DNA of 64,000 nucleotides, taken from Pyrinomonadaceae bacterium. Its GTDB lineage: Bacteria; Acidobacteriota; Blastocatellia; Pyrinomonadales; Pyrinomonadaceae. Positions 23,051-59,110 of the stretch are shown one piece after another. The position numbers were made by a program, and so were the translations under genes. Where the stretch lies: positions 106,548 to 170,547 of the forward strand of contig DASZEQ010000029.1 in the NCBI GenBank assembly GCA_035940695.1, in the 5' to 3' direction. Numbering within the stretch: the stretch's first letter is position 1; every line of letters begins with the position of its first letter. Under the pieces are notes generated by a model. It saw only the letters and a list, made by a program, of their open reading frames with translations, made no database searches and was not told the DNA's origin.

Positions 23051-23139
23051 TAGCTATTAGCTCTCAGCCGTCAGCTTTCAGCAAATTCAACTTTCAGCAA
23101 ACTCAACGCGTCTGGCTGATGGCCGAAAGCTGACGGCTC
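23051..23139. repeat. Heptamer-hairpin element, CAGCYNN/GCTGAYR family (etfB-etfA junction)
   Basis: Left arm tAGCTAT tAGCTCT cAGCCGT cAGCTTT cAGCAAA. Right arm gGCTGAT gGCCGAA aGCTGAC ggctc. agccgtcagctttc pairs with gaaagctgacggct. Confidence 0.85.
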
Positions 23140-23913
23140 TTAAAATATTCTGGCTTCGGTTCGTAATTTCTCCGCGAGTTGCGCTGCCCCGGCTTTGGCG
23201 TCGCCGTCGCCGAGAAACTGCGTCTGTTTGGTCTTTTGCGGAAAGTAAACTTTCGTGATTCGTTGATGCGCGGCCGCGCCCACGGCTTCCGCCGAAGGTG
23301 CGACCTCTTTAATCTCTTTCTTCTTGGCCGCCATGATGCCCTTCAGAGTCGCGTAGCGAATCTGGCTGATGCCGGATTGGATCGTGAGCAGCGCGGGGCG
23401 CGTCATCGCGTACCACTGATACCAGCCGCTCTCCAATTCCCGCTTCACACGCAACCCCTCGCCCGACGCGTCAACCTCGATCACGATGGTCGCGTGCGGC
23501 AGCCCCAGCAACTCCGCGAGGATCACGCCAGTCTGCGCGTAGCCGTTGTCGTCGGATTGCAAGCCGGTCAGGACGAGATCGGCCTGCTCGTCTTTGATGG
23601 CCTCGGACAAAACTCTGGCCGCCGCGTAAGGGCCGAGTTGAACCGTGTCGTCCGAGACGACGTGGATCGCGCGGTCAGCCCCGCGTGCGAGCGCGTCCTT
23701 AATGACGCTCTTGACGCGTTGCGGCCCGAGCGAGCAGACGACGACTTCGCCGCCGTGTTTCTCTTTCAGACGCAGAGCCTCTTCGAGCGCGTAGCCGTCC
23801 GACTCGTTGACTTCATAGGAGAGGTCGCCCTCCTCGATCCACGTCTCGCTTTTGTTGATCCGCAGGATCGCATCCTTGTTGGCGACCTGCTTCATAAGCA
23901 CAATAATTTTCAT
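23140..23913 (-). CDS. etfB: Electron transfer flavoprotein beta subunit
   Basis: ETF-beta family N-terminus MKIIVLMKQV and conserved core. Adjacent to etfA. Confidence 0.92.
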   Translation of the reverse strand: MKIIVLMKQVANKDAILRINKSETWIEEGDLSYEVNESDGYALEEALRLKEKHGGEVVVCSLGPQRVKSVIKDALARGADRAIHVVSDDTVQLGPYAAARVLSEAIKDEQADLVLTGLQSDDNGYAQTGVILAELLGLPHATIVIEVDASGEGLRVKRELESGWYQWYAMTRPALLTIQSGISQIRYATLKGIMAAKKKEIKEVAPSAEAVGAAAHQRITKVYFPQKTKQTQFLGDGDAKAGAAQLAEKLRTEARIF

Positions 23914-23918
23914 GATGA

Positions 23919-23995
23919 AGCTATCGGCCGTCAGCCATCAGCCGTCAGCAAAAAGCGTTAAAGCTGATTGCTGAAAGCTGATGGCTGACGGCTCT
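23919..23995. repeat. Heptamer-hairpin element, GCTGAYR family (fabF-etfB junction)
   Basis: agctatc ggccgtc agccatc agccgtc agc ... agctgat tgctgaa agctgat ggctgac ggct. gccgtcagccatcagc pairs with gctgatggctgacggc. Confidence 0.88.
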
Positions 23996-23998
23996 TTC

Positions 23999-25255
<1,257 letters not shown>

Positions 25256-29787: not shown

Positions 29788-31065
29788 TCAGCGCGCGGGT
29801 GTCAACGTGCCGAAGCCGACTTTCTCCAGCGCATCCTGACGCAACAAGTCGGCCAAGCGTTTGTCGCCCCCCGTGAGCAGGCGTTTCCGGCGATGCCGCC
29901 CCGCGCCGAAAAAATCGTGTAGCAGCGTCTCGTCCGATACGTCGGGGGCGGCGGCCTGACGTTTTTTCGTCCCGCCCCCCGCGCCCGTCGCCGCGCCCGC
30001 TTTCACCTTCAGCGCGCGCGCCGTCGCCAGAGCTTTTTGCGCCGGCTTGGCCTCGCCCAGTTGCGTCTGAATATAGCCTAACAACTGAAAGGTCGCCGCG
30101 TAGTTTTCGTCTGCCTCGACGGCTTTGTTGGCGTGCCTGAGCGCGGTACGCAGGCGACCCAGACGCGCCGACGCGAAACCCAACAGGTAATGCGCTTCGG
30201 CGCAGCGTCTCGCGTCGAGGGCTTGCTTGAAGTGTGCGTGCGCGCCCGCCCAATTATCTTCCTCGGCGTCGAAGCGTCCGAGCGCGTAATGCGCGGCGTA
30301 TGACGCGCCACGCTTCTCGATTGAATCGTGCAGCAGTGTGCGCGCCTGTTCCACTTCGCCCTCGTCGCCGCAGGCGATGCCGAGCAATAGGTAGACCTGC
30401 GCGCTGGCGGGTTGCGCTTCATGCGCCCGTTGCAGGTAGGCGCGGGCGAGCGCGAATTTGCCTTCGCGGAAGAATTGCAGGCCGAGGATGAAATTGAGCG
30501 TCGCGTGGGCGGGCGCGAGCGCGGAGGCGCGTTCCAACTCGCGTTTCGCGCGCGCCGTTTTCCCCGCGCCCAACAACTCCAGCCCGCGCCCGACGAACTC
30601 CGCGAAAACTTCTCTCTCCGCCCCCTGATAATCGTCCATGATGCTGGCGCGCAGAAATTCAACGTCGCTCAATTCCTTGCTCGCCGCCGCCTTCTCGCCC
30701 GCGAGCGCGGCGCGATACATGCTGTCGAGTCTCTGGCGGTCGGCCTTCCCGGTCTCGATCAGCAAGTCGATCAAACTTTCGAGCAGCGTGTGATCCGACA
30801 GCGCAATCTGCGACTGCTTCAAGAGCAGTTCGAATCCCCTTTCGAGCCGCTCGGCAAAGCGCAGCAGATTGTTTTCCAACAAAGAGACGCGCTCCATCAA
30901 CCCTTCGGCGTGTTGCGCCCCGGCCGTCACGTCTTCCTCGAAACGCAGCGTCGAAGGCTCGACGACCAGCATCAGGCGCGTCCCGCAACGCCCGCACAAC
31001 TCTTCACCGAGCGGGTTGGCCGCGCGGCATCTCTGGCAACGTATCTCTTGGAAACTTCTTCTCAT
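29788..31065 (-). CDS. TPR-repeat protein with N-terminal zinc ribbon
   Basis: CQRCRAANPLGEELCGRCG, then a coiled region and multiple TPR-like repeats. Start taken at MRRSFQEI (31065), because the track ORF upstream of it reads through the hairpin repeat. Confidence 0.75.
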   Translation of the reverse strand: MRRSFQEIRCQRCRAANPLGEELCGRCGTRLMLVVEPSTLRFEEDVTAGAQHAEGLMERVSLLENNLLRFAERLERGFELLLKQSQIALSDHTLLESLIDLLIETGKADRQRLDSMYRAALAGEKAAASKELSDVEFLRASIMDDYQGAEREVFAEFVGRGLELLGAGKTARAKRELERASALAPAHATLNFILGLQFFREGKFALARAYLQRAHEAQPASAQVYLLLGIACGDEGEVEQARTLLHDSIEKRGASYAAHYALGRFDAEEDNWAGAHAHFKQALDARRCAEAHYLLGFASARLGRLRTALRHANKAVEADENYAATFQLLGYIQTQLGEAKPAQKALATARALKVKAGAATGAGGGTKKRQAAAPDVSDETLLHDFFGAGRHRRKRLLTGGDKRLADLLRQDALEKVGFGTLTPAR

Positions 31066-31075
31066 ATCAAAAATA

Positions 31076-31149
31076 GTAAATCGTGAATCGTCAATCGTGA
31101 ATAGAGAAGAACTGTTTTCTCTATTCACGATTGACGATTCACGATTTAC
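31076..31149. repeat. Heptamer-hairpin element, AATCGTS family (hbd-TPR junction), perfect 33-bp stem
   Basis: gtaaatc gtgaatc gtcaatc gtgaata gagaa, loop gaactgtt, then the exact reverse complement. Overlaps the hbd stop codon by 4 nt. Confidence 0.95.
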
Positions 31150-41031: not shown

Positions 41032-41144
41032 CGCGTTTGAGAAAAGACGTGGTGAGTTAAGGCGACTTGCGGCCACGTAAAATAAACCGCTAAACAGCAC
41101 GACTCTTCCGTCGAAGCGCCACCCTCTTCGAGCCGCTTTTCTGA

Positions 41145-41178
41145 AGTCCCGCGTTGTTTGGCGCGGGACTTTCGTTTT
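41145..41178 (+). terminator. Intrinsic terminator/attenuator inside the 5' leader
   Basis: 9-bp stem agtcccgcg/cgcgggact with an 8-nt loop, followed by ttcgtttt. Lies between the promoter and the coding start. Confidence 0.65.
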
Positions 41179-41179
41179 G

Positions 41180-41252
41180 AGCCGTCAACTATCAGCGGTC
41201 AGCTATCAGCTTTTTGTCTGTGCTGACGGCTGACGGCTGACCGCTGACAGCT
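41180..41252. repeat. Heptamer-hairpin element, GCTGAYR family (leader of the methionine gene)
   Basis: agccgtcaactatcagcggtcagctatcagc, loop tttttgtctgt, then gctgacg gctgacg gctgacc gctgaca gc. Ends 6 nt before the ATG. Confidence 0.9.
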
Positions 41253-41257
41253 TCTTT

Positions 41258-43153
41258 ATGGAAAACTTTCGCGACCTACTTTCGAGCGACCAGATCACAG
41301 TGTTTGACGGCGCGATGGGCACGATGCTCTATGCAAAGGGCGTCTACATCAATCGCTCCTATGACGAGTTGAATCTGACGAACCCCGACCTCGTGCGCGA
41401 GGTGCATCAGGAATACGTGCGCGCGGGCGCGGACGTTATCGAGACGAACACCTTCGGCGCAACCGCTCACAACTTGCAGCAGTACGGATTGGAGGCGAGC
41501 CTTCGCCAGATCAACATCACGGCCGCACGTCTCGCGCGCGAGGCCGCCTGCGAACGCTGCCACGTCGCGGGCGCAATCGGCCCACTCGGCCTGCGTATCG
41601 AGCCTTACGGCCCCACCTCTTTCGACGAAGCGAAGGAGATGTTCAAGCAACAGGTCTCCGCGCTGCTCGAAGGGGGTGTTGACCTCTTCATCCTCGAAAC
41701 TTTCTCCGACATCTCCGAGATTCGCCAAGCCCTGCGCGCCGTGCGCGAACTTTGCGACCTGCCCGTCATCGCGCAGATGACGATCCTCGCTGACGGCAAC
41801 ACCTCTTACGGCACGACGCCCGAAGTCTTCACCACGCGCCTAGACGAATGGGGTGCGGACGTGATCGGCCTCAACTGCGGCGTCGGCCCGGCCGACGTGC
41901 TCACGGCCATCGAAAAGATGCGTAAGGTGACGGACAAGAAGTTGTCCGCACAACCCAACGCCGGTTTGCCGCGTGACGTGCAGGGGCGGCAGTTTTACAT
42001 GAGTTCGCCGGAGTACATGGCGAAGTATGCGAAGCGTCTGATTCAGGCGGGCGTGAAAGTGATCGGCGGCTGTTGCGGCACGATGCCCGCACACATCAAG
42101 CTCATCTCCGACGCCGTGCGCGCCGCTTCGCCCCGCAAGCAGCGCGTCATCTTCAAAACCGAGCAACCGGCGCGCATCGAAGAATTGCAGCCCACAGACA
42201 TTCAGGTCGTGCCGTTGGCGGAGCGTTCAAACTGGGCGCGACGGCTCGTGGGCGGCGAGTTTGTGACGACCGTGGAGGTGCTGCCGCCGAAAGGCTGCGA
42301 CGCCGCCAAGACCCTCGATCAAATACGGCTGCTCAAGACCGCCGGAGTCAACGCCGTCAACATCCCCGACGGGCCACGCGCGCAGACGCGCATGAGCGCG
42401 CAGGCCACCGCGCTGCTGGTCGAACGCGAGATCGGCCTCGAAGCCGTGCTCCACTATTGTTGCCGCGACCGCAACCTGCTCGGCATGATGTCCGACCTGC
42501 TCGGCGCGGCCGCGCTCGGCTTGCGGAATCTTCTGTTAATCACCGGCGACCCGCCGAAGATGGGGCCGTACCCGGACGCTACGGCCGTCTTCGACATCGA
42601 TTCCATCGGCCTGACCAACATGGTCAACAAGCTCAACCACGGTCTCGACCTCGGCAACAATCCCATCGGCTGCCCGACCTCTTTCTGTATCGGCGTCGGC
42701 GTCAACCCCGGCGCGATCAATCTCGACGAAGAGATCAAACGTTTCGAGTACAAGGTCGAGGCGGGCGCGGAATACGCCATCACGCAACCGGTCTTCGACG
42801 TGGGACAATTGCGCGACTTCCTCAAAAAAATCGAGCACGTCCGCATCCCCGTCATCGCGGGCATCTGGCCGCTCGTCTCCTTTCGCAACGCCGAGTTTCT
42901 CCACAACGAAGTGCCCGGCGTCCGCGTCACGCCTTCGATCATGGAACGCATGCGGCGCGCCTCTGACATCGGGAAAGAAGCCGCGCGCGACGAGGGCTTG
43001 CAGATCGCGCGCGAGTCGCTGCTCGAAGTGCGCGATCTGATACAGGGCGTGCAAGTCTCCGCCCCCTTCAACAACGTCCGCTACGCGCTCGAAGTGTTCG
43101 AGGCTCTGCCGGAGTTCGGCGCGCAGAGCGAAACGACGACGGCCGCCGGTTAG
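41258..43153 (+). CDS. Bifunctional homocysteine S-methyltransferase / 5,10-methylenetetrahydrofolate reductase (YitJ-like)
   Basis: N-terminal Hcy-binding domain (DGAMGT, ETNTFGA, GLNCG, GGCCGT zinc ligands) followed by an MTHFR-like TIM barrel (SFE..PPK..., HYCCRDRN, LLITGDPP). No B12 domain. Confidence 0.88.
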   Translation: MENFRDLLSSDQITVFDGAMGTMLYAKGVYINRSYDELNLTNPDLVREVHQEYVRAGADVIETNTFGATAHNLQQYGLEASLRQINITAARLAREAACERCHVAGAIGPLGLRIEPYGPTSFDEAKEMFKQQVSALLEGGVDLFILETFSDISEIRQALRAVRELCDLPVIAQMTILADGNTSYGTTPEVFTTRLDEWGADVIGLNCGVGPADVLTAIEKMRKVTDKKLSAQPNAGLPRDVQGRQFYMSSPEYMAKYAKRLIQAGVKVIGGCCGTMPAHIKLISDAVRAASPRKQRVIFKTEQPARIEELQPTDIQVVPLAERSNWARRLVGGEFVTTVEVLPPKGCDAAKTLDQIRLLKTAGVNAVNIPDGPRAQTRMSAQATALLVEREIGLEAVLHYCCRDRNLLGMMSDLLGAAALGLRNLLLITGDPPKMGPYPDATAVFDIDSIGLTNMVNKLNHGLDLGNNPIGCPTSFCIGVGVNPGAINLDEEIKRFEYKVEAGAEYAITQPVFDVGQLRDFLKKIEHVRIPVIAGIWPLVSFRNAEFLHNEVPGVRVTPSIMERMRRASDIGKEAARDEGLQIARESLLEVRDLIQGVQVSAPFNNVRYALEVFEALPEFGAQSETTTAAG

Positions 43154-55887: not shown

Positions 55888-56538
55888 ATGGGTCTCGAAA
55901 ATATACTCGCGGAAGCGTTGCCCGAAGTGTTGACGACGAAACTCGACTCGCTCGTCAACTGGGCGCGCAAGTCTTCTCTGTGGCCGGCGACGTTCGGCCT
56001 CGCCTGTTGCGCCATCGAAATGATGAACGCGACCAGTTCGCGCCACGACCTTGCGCGTTTCGGCTCGGAGGTGTTTCGCGCCAGCCCGCGACAAGCCGAC
56101 GTGATGATCGTCTCAGGCCGCGTCTCGCGCAAGATGGCTCCGGTGCTGCGTCGCATCTACGATCAAATGCCCGAACCGAAGTGGGTCATCTCGATGGGCG
56201 CGTGCGCCACTTCGGGCGGCGTCTTCGACAACTACGCTATCGTGCAGGGCGTGGACAAGATCGTGCCGGTGGACGTGTACGTTCCCGGTTGCCCGCCGCG
56301 CCCGGAGATGCTCATCAACGCCGTGATGATGTTGCAGGACAAGGTGATGAAAGAGTCTCTGCGCGACCGGCGCGACATCCCGGTCGAACAGGCGCGCGAG
56401 GCCGTCCCGCCGGGGACGCTGCCCGGCTCAGGCATCTCCGCTCTCAACGAAGCGGCGGCGCAGGATGCGGACGAGAAAGCAAACGTCTCGCGCCCCTACA
56501 CGATCCCCTCGCGCCACGAGCGGCGGCGTTCATCTTAA
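55888..56538 (+). CDS. nuoB: NADH-quinone oxidoreductase subunit B
   Basis: [30 protein letters not shown] and GCPPRPE Fe-S ligand motifs. About 45-aa C-terminal extension. Confidence 0.95.
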
Positions 56539-56548
56539 AAATAGCACT

Positions 56549-56626
56549 CGGCCGTCAGCTATCAGCGGTCAGCCGGACAGGCTGCATTTGCTCATAGCTG
56601 ATGGCTGATAGCTGACGGCTGACAGC
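56549..56626. repeat. Heptamer-hairpin element, GCTGAYR family (nuoB-nuoC junction)
   Basis: cggccgtcagctatcagcggtcagc, then loop, then gctgatg gctgata gctgacg gctgaca gc. Ends 5 nt before the nuoC ATG. Confidence 0.9.
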
Positions 56627-56631
56627 TTCTT

Positions 56632-57177
56632 ATGAGCAAAGATATCGAGCGCGAACAGGCGATAGCCGGGCAGGCGGCCGAAGAACCGTTGAAGGATCAG
56701 GCGGGGTCGCAGTTGATCTCCGTGCTGCAAGAGACGCACGCGGACGCGGTTTCGGAAGTGATTCAGGCGTTCGGCGAGATCACGATTGTCGTGCCGCGCG
56801 AGCACCTCGTCGAGTTGTGCGAGTACCTGAAGACCGCGCCGCAGTTCGGTTTCAACATGCTCGCGGACATCTGCGGCGTTGATCGCGGCCCGGAGGAAGA
56901 CCCGCGTTTTGAAGTCAACTATCATCTCTTTTCCACGACGAGATTTCATCGCCTGCGTCTGAAGGTGGTGGTGAGCGAAGAGAGCGCGAGTGTGCCGACC
57001 GTGACGGGCGTGTGGCGCACGGCCAACTGGCACGAGCGCGAAACCTTCGATATGTTCGGCGTCCGTTTCGACGGCCACCCCGACCTGCGGCGCATCCTCC
57101 TGCCCGACGACTGGCAGGGGCACGCGCTCCGCAAAGACTTTCCGCTGCGCGGCTACGAGCCGTACAGCCTTTCGTAG
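56632..57177 (+). CDS. nuoC: NADH-quinone oxidoreductase subunit C
   Basis: ERE..DMFG..F.GHPDLRRIL motif. Confidence 0.93.
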   Translation: MSKDIEREQAIAGQAAEEPLKDQAGSQLISVLQETHADAVSEVIQAFGEITIVVPREHLVELCEYLKTAPQFGFNMLADICGVDRGPEEDPRFEVNYHLFSTTRFHRLRLKVVVSEESASVPTVTGVWRTANWHERETFDMFGVRFDGHPDLRRILLPDDWQGHALRKDFPLRGYEPYSLS

Positions 57178-57178
57178 C

Positions 57179-57259
57179 GTTTCGAGTTTCCGGTTTCGGG
57201 TTTCAAGTTAAAAACTTCAGACCTGAGACTTGAAACTTGAAACCTGAAACTTGAAACTT
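57179..57259. repeat. Heptamer-hairpin element, GTTTCNR/CTTGAAA family (nuoC-nuoD junction)
   Basis: gtttcga gtttccg gtttcgg gtttcaa gtt, loop aaaa, then acttcag acctgag acttgaa acttgaa acctgaa acttgaa actt. Abuts ATG 57260. Confidence 0.9.
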
Positions 57260-58471
57260 ATGGTCGCAAATTTACCGCCGCAGTTTGAGGTTGTCGATCA
57301 ACCGTTCGACACGCAGATGACGATCTCGATGGGGCCGCAGCACCCTTCGACGCACGGCGTCCTGCGCCTCGAACTCGTGCTCGACGGCGAGATGGTCGTG
57401 AAATGTACGCCCGACATCGGCTATCTCCACACGGGGATGGAGAAGCTGTTCGAGTACAAAAAGTACCAGCAAGGCATCGTCATCACCGACCGGATGGACT
57501 ACCTGAATCCGCTCGGCAACAACCTCTGTTATGTGATGGCGGTGGAGAAACTGCTCGGCCTCGAAATCCCGGAACGCGCGCAGGTGATTCGCGTGCTGAT
57601 GTGCGAATTGCAGCGCATCGCTTCGCACATGGTCTGGTTGGGGACGCACGCGCTCGACATCGGCGCGATGACCGTCTTCTTCTACGCCTTCCGCGAGCGC
57701 GAGAAGATTTTGAACTTGATCGAAGCCGCTTCGGGCGGCCGCCTGACGCCGTCCTACTTCCGCATCGGCGGTTTGATGATGGACTTGCCCGCGGGCTTCG
57801 AGCGTCGCGCGCGGCAGTTCATGGACGGATTTCCGAAGGCCATTGACGAGTTCGAGACGCTGCTCTCAGGCAACCGTATTTTCCAGACGCGCACGCAGGG
57901 CGTCGGCATCATCACGGCCGAGGATGCGATTGACATGGGCGTCACGGGGCCGTGCCTGCGCGGCAGCGGCGTCGGCGTCGATGTGCGGCGCACGAACCCT
58001 TACACGGGTTATGAAACTTACGACTTCGAGATTCCGGTCGAGCAGAGTTGCGACGTGTGGGCGCGCTACGTCGTCCGCATGCGCGAACTACGCGAGTCTC
58101 TGAAGATCGCGCGGCAGGCTCTCGGCCGTCTGAAGCCGGGTGCGGTCAAGGCCGACGCGCCGAAAGTCGTCCTGCCGGATCGCGAGGCGATGAAGACGCA
58201 CATGGACGCGTTGATTCATCACTTCCTGATCGTGGCCGAGGGCTTCAACGTCCCGGCGGGCGAAATTTATCACCCGATTGAAGGCTCGAAGGGCGAACTC
58301 GGCTGCTACGTGAGATCGGACGGCGGGCCGAAGCCCGCGCGCGTACACTTTCGCGGCCCTTCGTTCATCAACCTCTCCGCCCTGCCCCACATGGCCGAGG
58401 GCGAGATGGTCGCGGACGTGGTCGCCATCATCGGTTCACTCGACATCGTGCTCGGCGAAATTGATAGATAG
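57260..58471 (+). CDS. nuoD: NADH-quinone oxidoreductase subunit D
   Basis: GPQHPSTHGVLR and HRGMEK-like HTGMEK motifs. Start taken at ATG 57260 (MVANLPPQ), because the track TTG at 57251 lies inside the repeat. Confidence 0.95.
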   Translation: MVANLPPQFEVVDQPFDTQMTISMGPQHPSTHGVLRLELVLDGEMVVKCTPDIGYLHTGMEKLFEYKKYQQGIVITDRMDYLNPLGNNLCYVMAVEKLLGLEIPERAQVIRVLMCELQRIASHMVWLGTHALDIGAMTVFFYAFREREKILNLIEAASGGRLTPSYFRIGGLMMDLPAGFERRARQFMDGFPKAIDEFETLLSGNRIFQTRTQGVGIITAEDAIDMGVTGPCLRGSGVGVDVRRTNPYTGYETYDFEIPVEQSCDVWARYVVRMRELRESLKIARQALGRLKPGAVKADAPKVVLPDREAMKTHMDALIHHFLIVAEGFNVPAGEIYHPIEGSKGELGCYVRSDGGPKPARVHFRGPSFINLSALPHMAEGEMVADVVAIIGSLDIVLGEIDR

Positions 58472-58474
58472 CAT

Positions 58475-58546
58475 TCAGCTATCAGCTATCAGCGTTCGGC
58501 CGAACCGGTTGAATTTGCTGAAAGCTGACGGCTGATGGCTGACAGC
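58475..58546. repeat. Heptamer-hairpin element, GCTGAYR family (nuoD-nuoE junction)
   Basis: tcagctatcagctatcagc, then loop, then gctgaaa gctgacg gctgatg gctgaca gc. Ends 6 nt before the nuoE ATG. Confidence 0.9.
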
Positions 58547-58552
58547 TTCTTT

Positions 58553-59110
58553 ATGAGTAAACAGTTCACGCCCAACAATCCTTTGCCGCAGGAAGCGCCC
58601 GTGCCGGATGAGATCGCCACGTTTTCGGCGGCGGTCGAAGCGGAGATCGACGGGCATCTGGCGAAGTACCCGTTGAAGCGTTCGGCGATTCTGCCGCTCA
58701 TGTTCATCGTGCAGCGCGAGCGCGGTTATCTGGACAAGCCGGGCGTGGCCTATCTCGCGGATCGTCTGGGCGTGCGCGTCACGGACATCTGGGAGGTGGC
58801 GACCTTCTACTCGATGATCAATACCGAGCCGGTCGGCAAGTATCACCTGCAAGTTTGCCGCACGCTCTCGTGCAAGATCGTCGGCGCGGACAAGATCACG
58901 GAACACTGCGCGAAACGCCTCGGCATCAAGCCCGGCGAGACGACCGAAGACGGGCAGTTTTCGCTCTCCGAAGTTGAATGTCTCGGCTCGTGCGGCACAG
59001 CCCCGATGATGCAGATCGGGTTCGACTATCACGAGAACCTGACGCCGGAGAAGGTGGACGAACTGATCGAACGTTGTCGCAGCAATCAACTCTCGAACGG
59101 CGTGCGCTAA
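58553..59110 (+). CDS. nuoE: NADH-quinone oxidoreductase subunit E
   Basis: 2Fe-2S ligands (VCRTLSC ... CLGSCGTAPMM). Start taken at ATG 58553 (MSKQFTP), because the track start 58535 lies inside the repeat. Confidence 0.93.
   Translation: MSKQFTPNNPLPQEAPVPDEIATFSAAVEAEIDGHLAKYPLKRSAILPLMFIVQRERGYLDKPGVAYLADRLGVRVTDIWEVATFYSMINTEPVGKYHLQVCRTLSCKIVGADKITEHCAKRLGIKPGETTEDGQFSLSEVECLGSCGTAPMMQIGFDYHENLTPEKVDELIERCRSNQLSNGVR

Follow-up and report, generated by a model that had tools for sequence, protein, structure and literature searches.

Several genes in a 64,000-nucleotide stretch of DNA from a soil acidobacterium of the family Pyrinomonadaceae (assembly GCA_035940695.1, contig DASZEQ010000029.1, positions 106,548 to 170,547; hereafter the window) start directly after a nearly identical string, GGCTGACAGCTTCTT(T)ATG. 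This string is the outer 3' end of a hairpin formed by inverted arrays of the heptamer GCTGAYR. The genes concerned lack a Shine-Dalgarno (SD) sequence with or without such a hairpin; a role of the string as a dedicated start signal is therefore improbable. We favor, with a probability of about 0.6, the explanation that it is the outer end of a repeated, stop-anchored palindrome, rather than a start signal with independent origins at unrelated genes. The start context consists of the hairpin end and a short A/U-rich linker, at genes that are SD-less anyway. The anchor of the hairpins is the upstream stop codon or terminator; from there they reach to 0-15 nt from the next ATG wherever no SD sequence must be kept.

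A first-pass annotation of the window had described the tail string at 41243, 56618 and 58538, running into (T)ATG, together with a minus-strand copy in front of etfB. All four were found as cited. GCTGACAGCTTCTT is present exactly at 41243-41256, 56618-56631 and 58538-58551 on the plus strand, each time followed by (T)ATG, and the minus-strand copy at etfB has the sequence ...gatagcttcatcATG, with the start at 23913. By chance, 0.39 matches to GCTGACAGCTTCTT would be expected, two mismatches being allowed. In the whole genome (G000; 4.38 Mb in 36 contigs, 62% GC), GCTGACAGCTTCTT(T)ATG occurs four times, and three of these occurrences are inside the window. Members of the GCTGAYR family have the layout (YRTCAGC)n-loop-(GCTGAYR)n, as a rule with a single degenerate unit after it, for example GCTTCTT or GCTCTTA. 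The shared tail is in phase with the heptamer array (GCTGACA, GCTTCTT, (T)ATG); it is therefore the degenerate last unit of the array. Other copies end in GCTCTTA, GCTATTC, GCTACTT and similar units followed by ATG, and in half of the copies the palindrome runs 4-7 nt past the core. The genome contains 61 paired GCTGAYR elements, with identical polarity in all.

GCTGAYR is one word among several. Arrays with a period of 7 nt number 986 in this genome, versus 62 with a period of 8 and 42 with a period of 9. All words considered, there are at least 356 heptamer hairpins, with stems of about 34 bp and a mean folding free energy of -47 kcal/mol, and at least 313 inverted array pairs with loops of 10-60 nt. 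They belong to six or more word families, including GCTGAYR, GATTYAC, YTGAAAC, CCTCTRA and CTGCTYA, none of which contains G-runs. Under a strict pairing criterion, 384 of about 985 period-7 arrays were scored as unpaired. In an Rfam scan of the window at the gathering score, the hairpins matched no family, the sole hit being a SAM-II riboswitch (41039-41114). In many cases the upstream stop codon is within the array, and arrays often provide the stop of the upstream gene. Stop triplets in all three frames of either strand were found in 93.5% of the heptamer hairpins versus 51% of shuffled sequences; a 7-nt period carries a stop triplet through all three frames.

The four window copies in front of the starts cited above are predicted to be very stable, with folding energies of -39.8 to -55.4 kcal/mol and z-scores of -6.2 to -8.8 against dinucleotide shuffles. 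One fills the nuoB-nuoC junction (56543..56627, plus strand, -55.4 kcal/mol, z -8.2) between the nuoB stop TAA at 56536-56538 and the nuoC ATG at 56632; its tail GCTGACAGCTTCTT and this ATG cover 56618..56634. Another fills the nuoD-nuoE junction (58469..58541, plus strand, -43.3 kcal/mol, z -7.2). Here the nuoD stop TAG (58469-58471) is itself paired within the stem base, and the tail GCTGACAGCTTCTTT with the nuoE ATG (58553) covers 58538..58555. The third, on the minus strand (23913..24001, -52.2 kcal/mol, z -8.8), extends from the stop of a ketoacyl-synthase gene (TGA 24001-23999) to the etfB ATG (23913-23911), the stop pairing with a UCA that overlaps the A of the etfB AUG. A further minus-strand GCTGAYR hairpin (23064..23133, or C29:129611-129680) lies between the stop of the gene at 23140-23913 and the next gene on that strand, which starts 20 nt beyond. 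The nuoC-nuoD junction is filled by a hairpin of another family, (GTTTCAR)n...(YTGAAAC)n, at 57179..57259 (plus strand), which ends with cttgaaactt followed by the nuoD ATG (57260). The strings cited in the earlier description for nuoD, mutM, nuoH and a TPR gene were recovered at 57250, 37547, 63335 and 31063-31082 (minus strand), respectively, and the other word families show the same adjacency to ATG as GCTGAYR.

The fourth copy is located in the 5' leader of a homocysteine S-methyltransferase/methylenetetrahydrofolate reductase gene (metH-like; 41258-43153, plus strand, assigned by Pfam). This hairpin (41182..41250, plus strand, -39.8 kcal/mol, z -6.2) has a 5' arm (YRTCAGC)n, a loop of 11 nt and a 3' arm (GCTGAYR)4. 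The last unit, tail and start, GCTGACA GCTTCTT T ATG, cover 41243..41260 on the plus strand, with about 7 unpaired nt between the stem and the AUG at 41258. Upstream of the hairpin lies the SAM-II aptamer (SAM_alpha, RF00521; 41039..41114, plus strand, 41.6 bits for a gathering score of 36), followed by a terminator-like stem with a U-tract (gtcccgcg...cgcgggac tttcgtttt; 41146..41178, plus strand), which is the expression platform of the riboswitch. In all congeners, the hairpin starts directly after this terminator. The aptamer and terminator region (41039-41178) is also kept in all congeners. As SAM-II elements are typical of Proteobacteria and usually control translation, one coupled to a terminator in an acidobacterium is uncommon.

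Pfam supports the gene names NuoB, NuoC, NuoD, NuoE and ETF subunit, with a ketoacyl synthase before the latter. The start positions were checked by homology. In every congener, the alignments of NuoC, NuoE and the MetH-like protein begin with residue 1, and in several genomes their open frame begins at that methionine or one codon earlier. Met1 of the MetH-like protein is conserved in congeners and in one homologue with 69% identity. Thus, homology supports the cited start codons. An in-frame ATG at 58535, inside the hairpin arm, was excluded by homology as the nuoE start (186-aa open frame, three relatives). The NuoC loci closest to that of this genome all come from metagenome-assembled genomes (MAGs) of Pyrinomonadaceae.

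The SD signal of this genome appears as a GGAG/GAGG peak at -16 to -9. When an anti-SD duplex of -5 kcal/mol or better was taken as an SD sequence, 38% of 485 genes with unambiguous starts were found to carry one, for a background of 20%. The cited starts do lack it, as first reported: the metH-like, nuoC, nuoE, etfB and nuoD starts, examined for anti-SD complementarity 5-13 nt upstream, gave duplexes of +0.7 to -1.8 kcal/mol, and the comparison genes said to have strong SD sequences gave -7.5 (43425), -9.3 (34020), -10.3 (55381) and -12.4 kcal/mol (48982, minus strand). Among GCTGAYR copies, no start up to 14 nt from the hairpin has an SD sequence (0/29), because there is no room for one; at 15-40 nt, 7/18 have one, which matches the genomic rate.

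A control was performed on 80 Pyrinomonadaceae loci or genomes with homology-defined starts. A heptamer hairpin was present at 29/64 nuoB-nuoC, 35/79 nuoC-nuoD and 43/64 nuoD-nuoE junctions, and at 1/74 nuoA-nuoB junctions. An SD sequence preceded nuoC, nuoD or nuoE in 2/106 cases with a hairpin and in 8/98 cases without (p=0.05). In the same survey, nuoB, downstream of the junction where a hairpin was found just once, has an SD sequence in about 83% of cases. Since nuoC, nuoD and nuoE are SD-less both with and without a hairpin, the absence of SD is a property of the gene and of the genome; it is neither brought nor replaced by the hairpin. The hairpins settle at the junctions without an SD sequence and avoid the one that has it. 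The proposal of an alternative initiation context thus stands for the recurrent adjacency and the missing SD sequence, but not for a hairpin and tract acting as a signal that replaces SD, in a genome where SD use is low overall. A split ribosome-binding site, in which folding would bring an SD sequence upstream of the hairpin to the AUG, was also considered and rejected: SD-like duplexes occur in the 25 nt before the hairpin in 21% of cases versus 29% at gene 3' ends generally.

The placement of the hairpins was analyzed on our own gene calls (longest open reading frame (ORF) plus codon-usage scoring, 3329 genes). Most GCTGAYR hairpins (56/61) are between co-directional genes. In 53 of these 56, the stop is 3-16 nt before the first TCAGC; 30 of the 56 have the ATG no further than 14 nt downstream of the last GCTGA and another 14 have it at 15-28 nt, so that the adjacency to ATG is indeed recurrent and non-random. 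Convergent GCTGAYR copies numbered 0 in one classification and 2/69 in a second. With all families included, 294 hairpins are co-directional, 33 convergent and 25 divergent, and the median distances are 3 nt from stop to hairpin and 9 nt from hairpin to start. Once the hairpin is subtracted from the intergenic length, the residual spacer measures 11 nt in the median and is shorter than 25 nt in 72% of hairpin junctions, versus 28% of co-directional junctions without a hairpin. Therefore, the hairpins fill tight gene junctions and make up nearly the whole spacer.

When both ends are considered, the 294 co-directional hairpins comprise 155 that are flush with both the stop and the start, 82 with the stop only and 17 with the start only. 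The long spacers (at least 60 nt residual, n=56) leave room for a choice: 31 hairpins lie at the stop only, 10 at the start only and 15 at neither, for an expectation of about 13% (roughly 7) at each end under uniform placement. The preference for the stop side is significant (p=4e-14), that for the start side is not. Among the 33 convergent hairpins, 21 abut both stops.

The evolution of three of these sites was followed among congeners. A heptamer hairpin is present at nuoB-nuoC, nuoD-nuoE and in the metH leader in 13/13, 13/13 and 11/11 congeners examined, respectively, between flanks whose coding DNA shows about 90% identity. The words at these occupied junctions differ, however, and include GCTGAYR, GCTAAYR, GTGACRR, GTRAGCA, GTTGTCM/GTGGTCA, ATTCAGR and GAGGTCA. 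In congener G001, (TTAGCYR)n...(GCTAAYR)n is found at all three sites where the present genome has (TCAGCYR)n...(GCTGAYR)n. The same base is changed in every unit of both arms (loci L013, L112 and L127 versus 41182-41250, 56543-56627 and 58469-58541 of the window). Such a concerted change at three loci implies genome-wide homogenisation or replacement of the word. GCTGAYR itself is patchy in the genus, with 130 hits in the present genome and none in 7 of 19 congeners searched.

Pairing of the two arms shows no preference for the sense strand. The sense strand has 595 G.U pairs and the antisense strand 641, and the mean folding energies are -47.1 and -47.7 kcal/mol. RNA-level selection on the sense strand was therefore rejected, neither the G.U versus A.C asymmetry nor the strand stabilities differing. 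Both strands fold equally well and words are swapped at occupied sites, which points to maintenance at the DNA level. Indeed, the pairing looks as if one arm were copied from the other, or as if copies were converted by one another, and does not look like the product of compensatory evolution of an RNA.

Elsewhere in the class, in families other than this one, nuoB and nuoC overlap by ATGA or have adjacent stop and start codons. Pyrinomonadaceae without the hairpin have spacers of 0-36 nt, those of nuoC-nuoD and nuoD-nuoE being 0-6 nt. We also noted a C-terminal extension of NuoB of about 30 residues (56440-56538 of the window), which is found in this genus and is absent from the class's other families, where nuoB overlaps nuoC by ATGA. 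In several Pyrinomonadaceae genera, a conserved, non-repetitive spacer of about 70 nt replaces the nuoB-nuoC hairpin (…ttcagacaaacgaagcttttcagcaacaaattygggtcagg…; loci L032, L035, L036, L044, L048, L054, L059, L063, L070, L091 and L094). This spacer is weakly structured (-10 to -15 kcal/mol).

Some observations weigh against the hairpin end being a mere neighbor of the start codon. In divergent spacers, 10/18 hairpins are within 15 nt of a start, versus 16% expected (p=1e-4). Moreover, ATG is used at 86% of hairpin-adjacent starts versus 65% in the reference set. Both fit some link to initiation. That three junctions are always occupied in the genus while their words turn over could be due to a selected function. 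The gene calls are home-made, so individual start distances in the genome-wide analysis may be wrong; the nuo survey, with its homology-defined starts, agrees with them. Finally, transcription through the hairpins, processing and coupling are all inferred. Taken together, the stop-side preference in long spacers and the proximity to starts in divergent ones indicate that starts attract hairpins somewhat and that the dominant anchor is the stop.

The proximity to starts in divergent spacers and the frequent use of ATG would also fit a selected module for SD-independent initiation formed by the hairpin, U-rich tract and AUG, with the hairpin as a standby site of the 30S subunit or the stem docked on the ribosomal platform. 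Adjacency to ATG in every word family and the absence of SD when the ATG is at most 14 nt away also speak for such a module, as does the methionine-gene copy, where initiation must take place de novo 7 nt from a -40 kcal/mol stem; a similar idea has been put forward for TAACTGA repeats (PMC4679880). We nevertheless consider it quite unlikely. The hairpin-less orthologues are equally SD-less, the hairpins favor the stop side where space allows, and the 33 convergent ones have no start after them on either strand. The stem-to-ATG spacing is unconstrained (-3 to +20 nt), varying from -1 to 16 nt across species at a single junction, and there is no sense-strand signature. The linker, described at first as pyrimidine/U-rich, is in fact A/U-rich and G-poor (A.28, C.21, G.18, T.33).

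The geometry of the junctions raises the question of translational coupling. Of the 107 hairpins found family-wide at nuoB-nuoC, nuoC-nuoD and nuoD-nuoE, all but one have the stop at -3 to +9 nt relative to the stem base; in about 100 it is within +6 nt, and it is often itself paired. The ATG follows the stem base at -3 to +26 nt; the medians are about 5-7 nt, and no distance is preferred. Given the footprint of the ribosome, one terminating at such a stop must have melted roughly 10 bp at the foot of the stem, by which the 3' strand directly before the AUG would become accessible. For the operon-internal copies, it is thus physically plausible that unmasking or re-initiation couples the two genes. 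It cannot be general, because the methionine-gene copy follows a SAM-II riboswitch and its terminator, with no credible upstream ORF. A leader peptide before this hairpin was considered and rejected, the only frame, of 11 codons with a TTG start, lying inside the terminator. The re-initiation suggested in the first-pass annotation therefore does not apply to this gene. As for the operon-internal copies, our comparative analyses gave no test in support of standby binding or re-initiation, and several of them argue against a dedicated role.

Hairpins could nonetheless have been selected as coupling devices, the stem setting the stop beside the AUG so that the ribosome unmasks the latter or crosses the stem base in a shunt-like manner. 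The position of stop and ATG relative to the stem base, the concentration of hairpins in tight co-directional junctions and the lack of SD in the downstream genes are all compatible with this. In addition, hairpin-less relatives have 0-6 nt spacers at nuoC-nuoD and nuoD-nuoE, and the ATGA overlap at nuoB-nuoC in other families of the class represents the ancestral coupled state. We regard selection for coupling as unlikely: besides the methionine-gene copy without upstream ORF, some copies are convergent or divergent, 82 of the co-directional ones abut the stop and are far from the start, and a process in which arrays fill the spacer until constrained predicts the same geometry. A specific form of crossing is conceivable at more than 150 SD-less operon junctions. 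There the perfect hairpin would be a topologically neutral insert holding the stop beside the start, and a ribosome at the stem-base stop would re-initiate across the helix base on an AUG 0-15 nt beyond, as a bacterial counterpart of ribosome shunting. This possibility is rather improbable; if true, it would explain why only hairpins are tolerated at formerly overlapping, coupled junctions.

Transcription termination was considered as well. Some copies are followed by TTTT(T)ATG, the flanks are often A-rich in 5' and T-rich in 3', and the 21 convergent copies that abut both stops resemble bidirectional terminators. Intrinsic terminators or attenuators inside operons, with the T-rich tail as U-tract, are nonetheless a very improbable explanation. 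The tails are just 33% T, with 22-33% A, and a scan with the terminator consensus flagged trivial sub-stems only. The stems, of about 34 bp, are far longer than those of terminators. Moreover, most copies are between subunit genes of one complex, for example nuoB-C-D-E, and the methionine-gene copy is directly downstream of a proper terminator.

A stop-anchored palindrome whose end happens to reach the next start would be produced as follows. Arrays would arise and be homogenised by slippage, template switching or conversion, and would expand until they meet constrained sequence. In operon mRNA, the hairpins would act as, or be tolerated as, post-stop stem-loops, forming an exonuclease barrier or a processing site. 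Initiation at the adjacent AUG would be SD-independent and take place on the short linker, which is A/U-rich and G-poor. At operon-internal copies, the terminating ribosome would melt the lower stem and transiently free the region upstream of the AUG, which may couple the two genes.

Several known repeats resemble these hairpins. The repetitive extragenic palindromic (REP) sequences of gamma-proteobacteria, with their bacterial interspersed mosaic elements (BIME) and REP doublets forming hairpins (REPINs), are likewise abundant intergenic palindromes located in operons or after stops, with species-specific sequence at conserved sites. REP/BIME elements stabilise mRNA 3' ends, and translation of the upstream gene is reportedly affected when a REP lies within 15 nt of its stop (Liang, Rudd and Deutscher 2015). 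The present elements differ in having arms made of tandem 7-mers, stems of about 34 bp and no link to a Y1 transposase (REP-associated tyrosine transposase, RAYT). Indeed, the two full-length PF01797 genes of this genome have no arrays within 600 nt, and PF01797 gave no match in seven hairpin-bearing congeners, which are incomplete MAGs. The motif CGTC, which like GTAG is a tetranucleotide tag of REP ends, is found near an end in 43/61 GCTGAYR copies, but only as part of the repeated word CGTCAGC. An origin as miniature inverted-repeat transposable elements was rejected: the boundaries are fuzzy, and direct repeats of 2-5 nt, as target-site duplications would leave, occur there at the chance rate (k=2: 5 versus 4.5; k>=4: 0). 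The single gene of the genome for a 23S-rRNA intervening-sequence (IVS) protein (S23p, PF05635; C36:247975-248295, minus strand) is outside the window; a complete, AT-rich hairpin with a 7/14-nt period and ACAGATT/GGAAATT words lies wholly upstream of it and does not enclose it.

The short tandemly repeated repetitive (STRR) sequences of heterocystous cyanobacteria are intergenic tandem 7-mers that differ between lineages. Phylum and words differ here, and the paired, stop-anchored arrangement is specific to the present hairpins. Closer parallels are the heptamer arrays of Xanthomonas (GGGAATC) and Nostoc (GGGGAYT) described by Rehm et al. (2015, PMC4692102). They are found preferentially between co-directional ORFs, at most 50 bp from a stop or start and sometimes overlapping the stop; in Xanthomonas, 70-75 arrays per genome are paired in convergent orientation, can form hairpins and are transcribed (PMC4692102). 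Tandem 7-nt units, inverted pairs and co-directional junctions are shared with our elements. However, the words of Rehm et al. are G-rich, G-quadruplex-forming and one per genome, whereas at least six words without G-tracts are found here, nearly all in long perfect hairpins and swapped at fixed junctions between congeners.

The TAACTGA direct repeats of marine Beggiatoaceae, cyanobacteria and Bacteroidetes (MacGregor 2015, PMC4679880) lie a few nt upstream of starts where SD sequences are rare, in a genome with 25% SD use, and a role in translation was proposed for them but left untested (PMC4679880). Our hairpins are likewise heptamer arrays near starts in an SD-poor setting, with 30/56 within 14 nt and an SD count of 0/29. 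They differ in being stop-anchored inverted pairs of -40 to -55 kcal/mol, TAACTGA being a single word in direct repeats that are single-stranded in RNA. Stem-loops involved in selective RNA processing and stabilisation (SRPS), for example in Clostridium cellulolyticum, are intercistronic and follow selected genes of operons for multi-subunit complexes (PMC4423207). These stem-loops are unique, locus-specific and experimentally backed, in contrast to the repeated families reported here, which are known from sequence. In the literature searched, nothing was found on Pyrinomonadaceae repeats or hairpins. Altogether, our elements have in common with the two closest published systems (GGGAATC and TAACTGA) a unit of 7 nt, a location at gene junctions and a setting poor in SD sequences; they differ by their many non-G-rich words, the nearly constant formation of long perfect hairpins and the turnover of words at occupied junctions.

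These results have consequences for annotation, as hairpin ends mark true stops and starts, and the absence of SD at these genes is normal and not an error. Junctions stay occupied while their 7-mer words are swapped between species, which requires a copying or homogenising mechanism not yet described. About one gene in 10 of this genome, core complex I subunits included, starts a few nt after a hairpin of about -47 kcal/mol, without SD. Thus, Pyrinomonadaceae are a natural test bed for the way ribosomes start beside strong structure and for the role of the long-unexplained heptamer repeats of bacteria.

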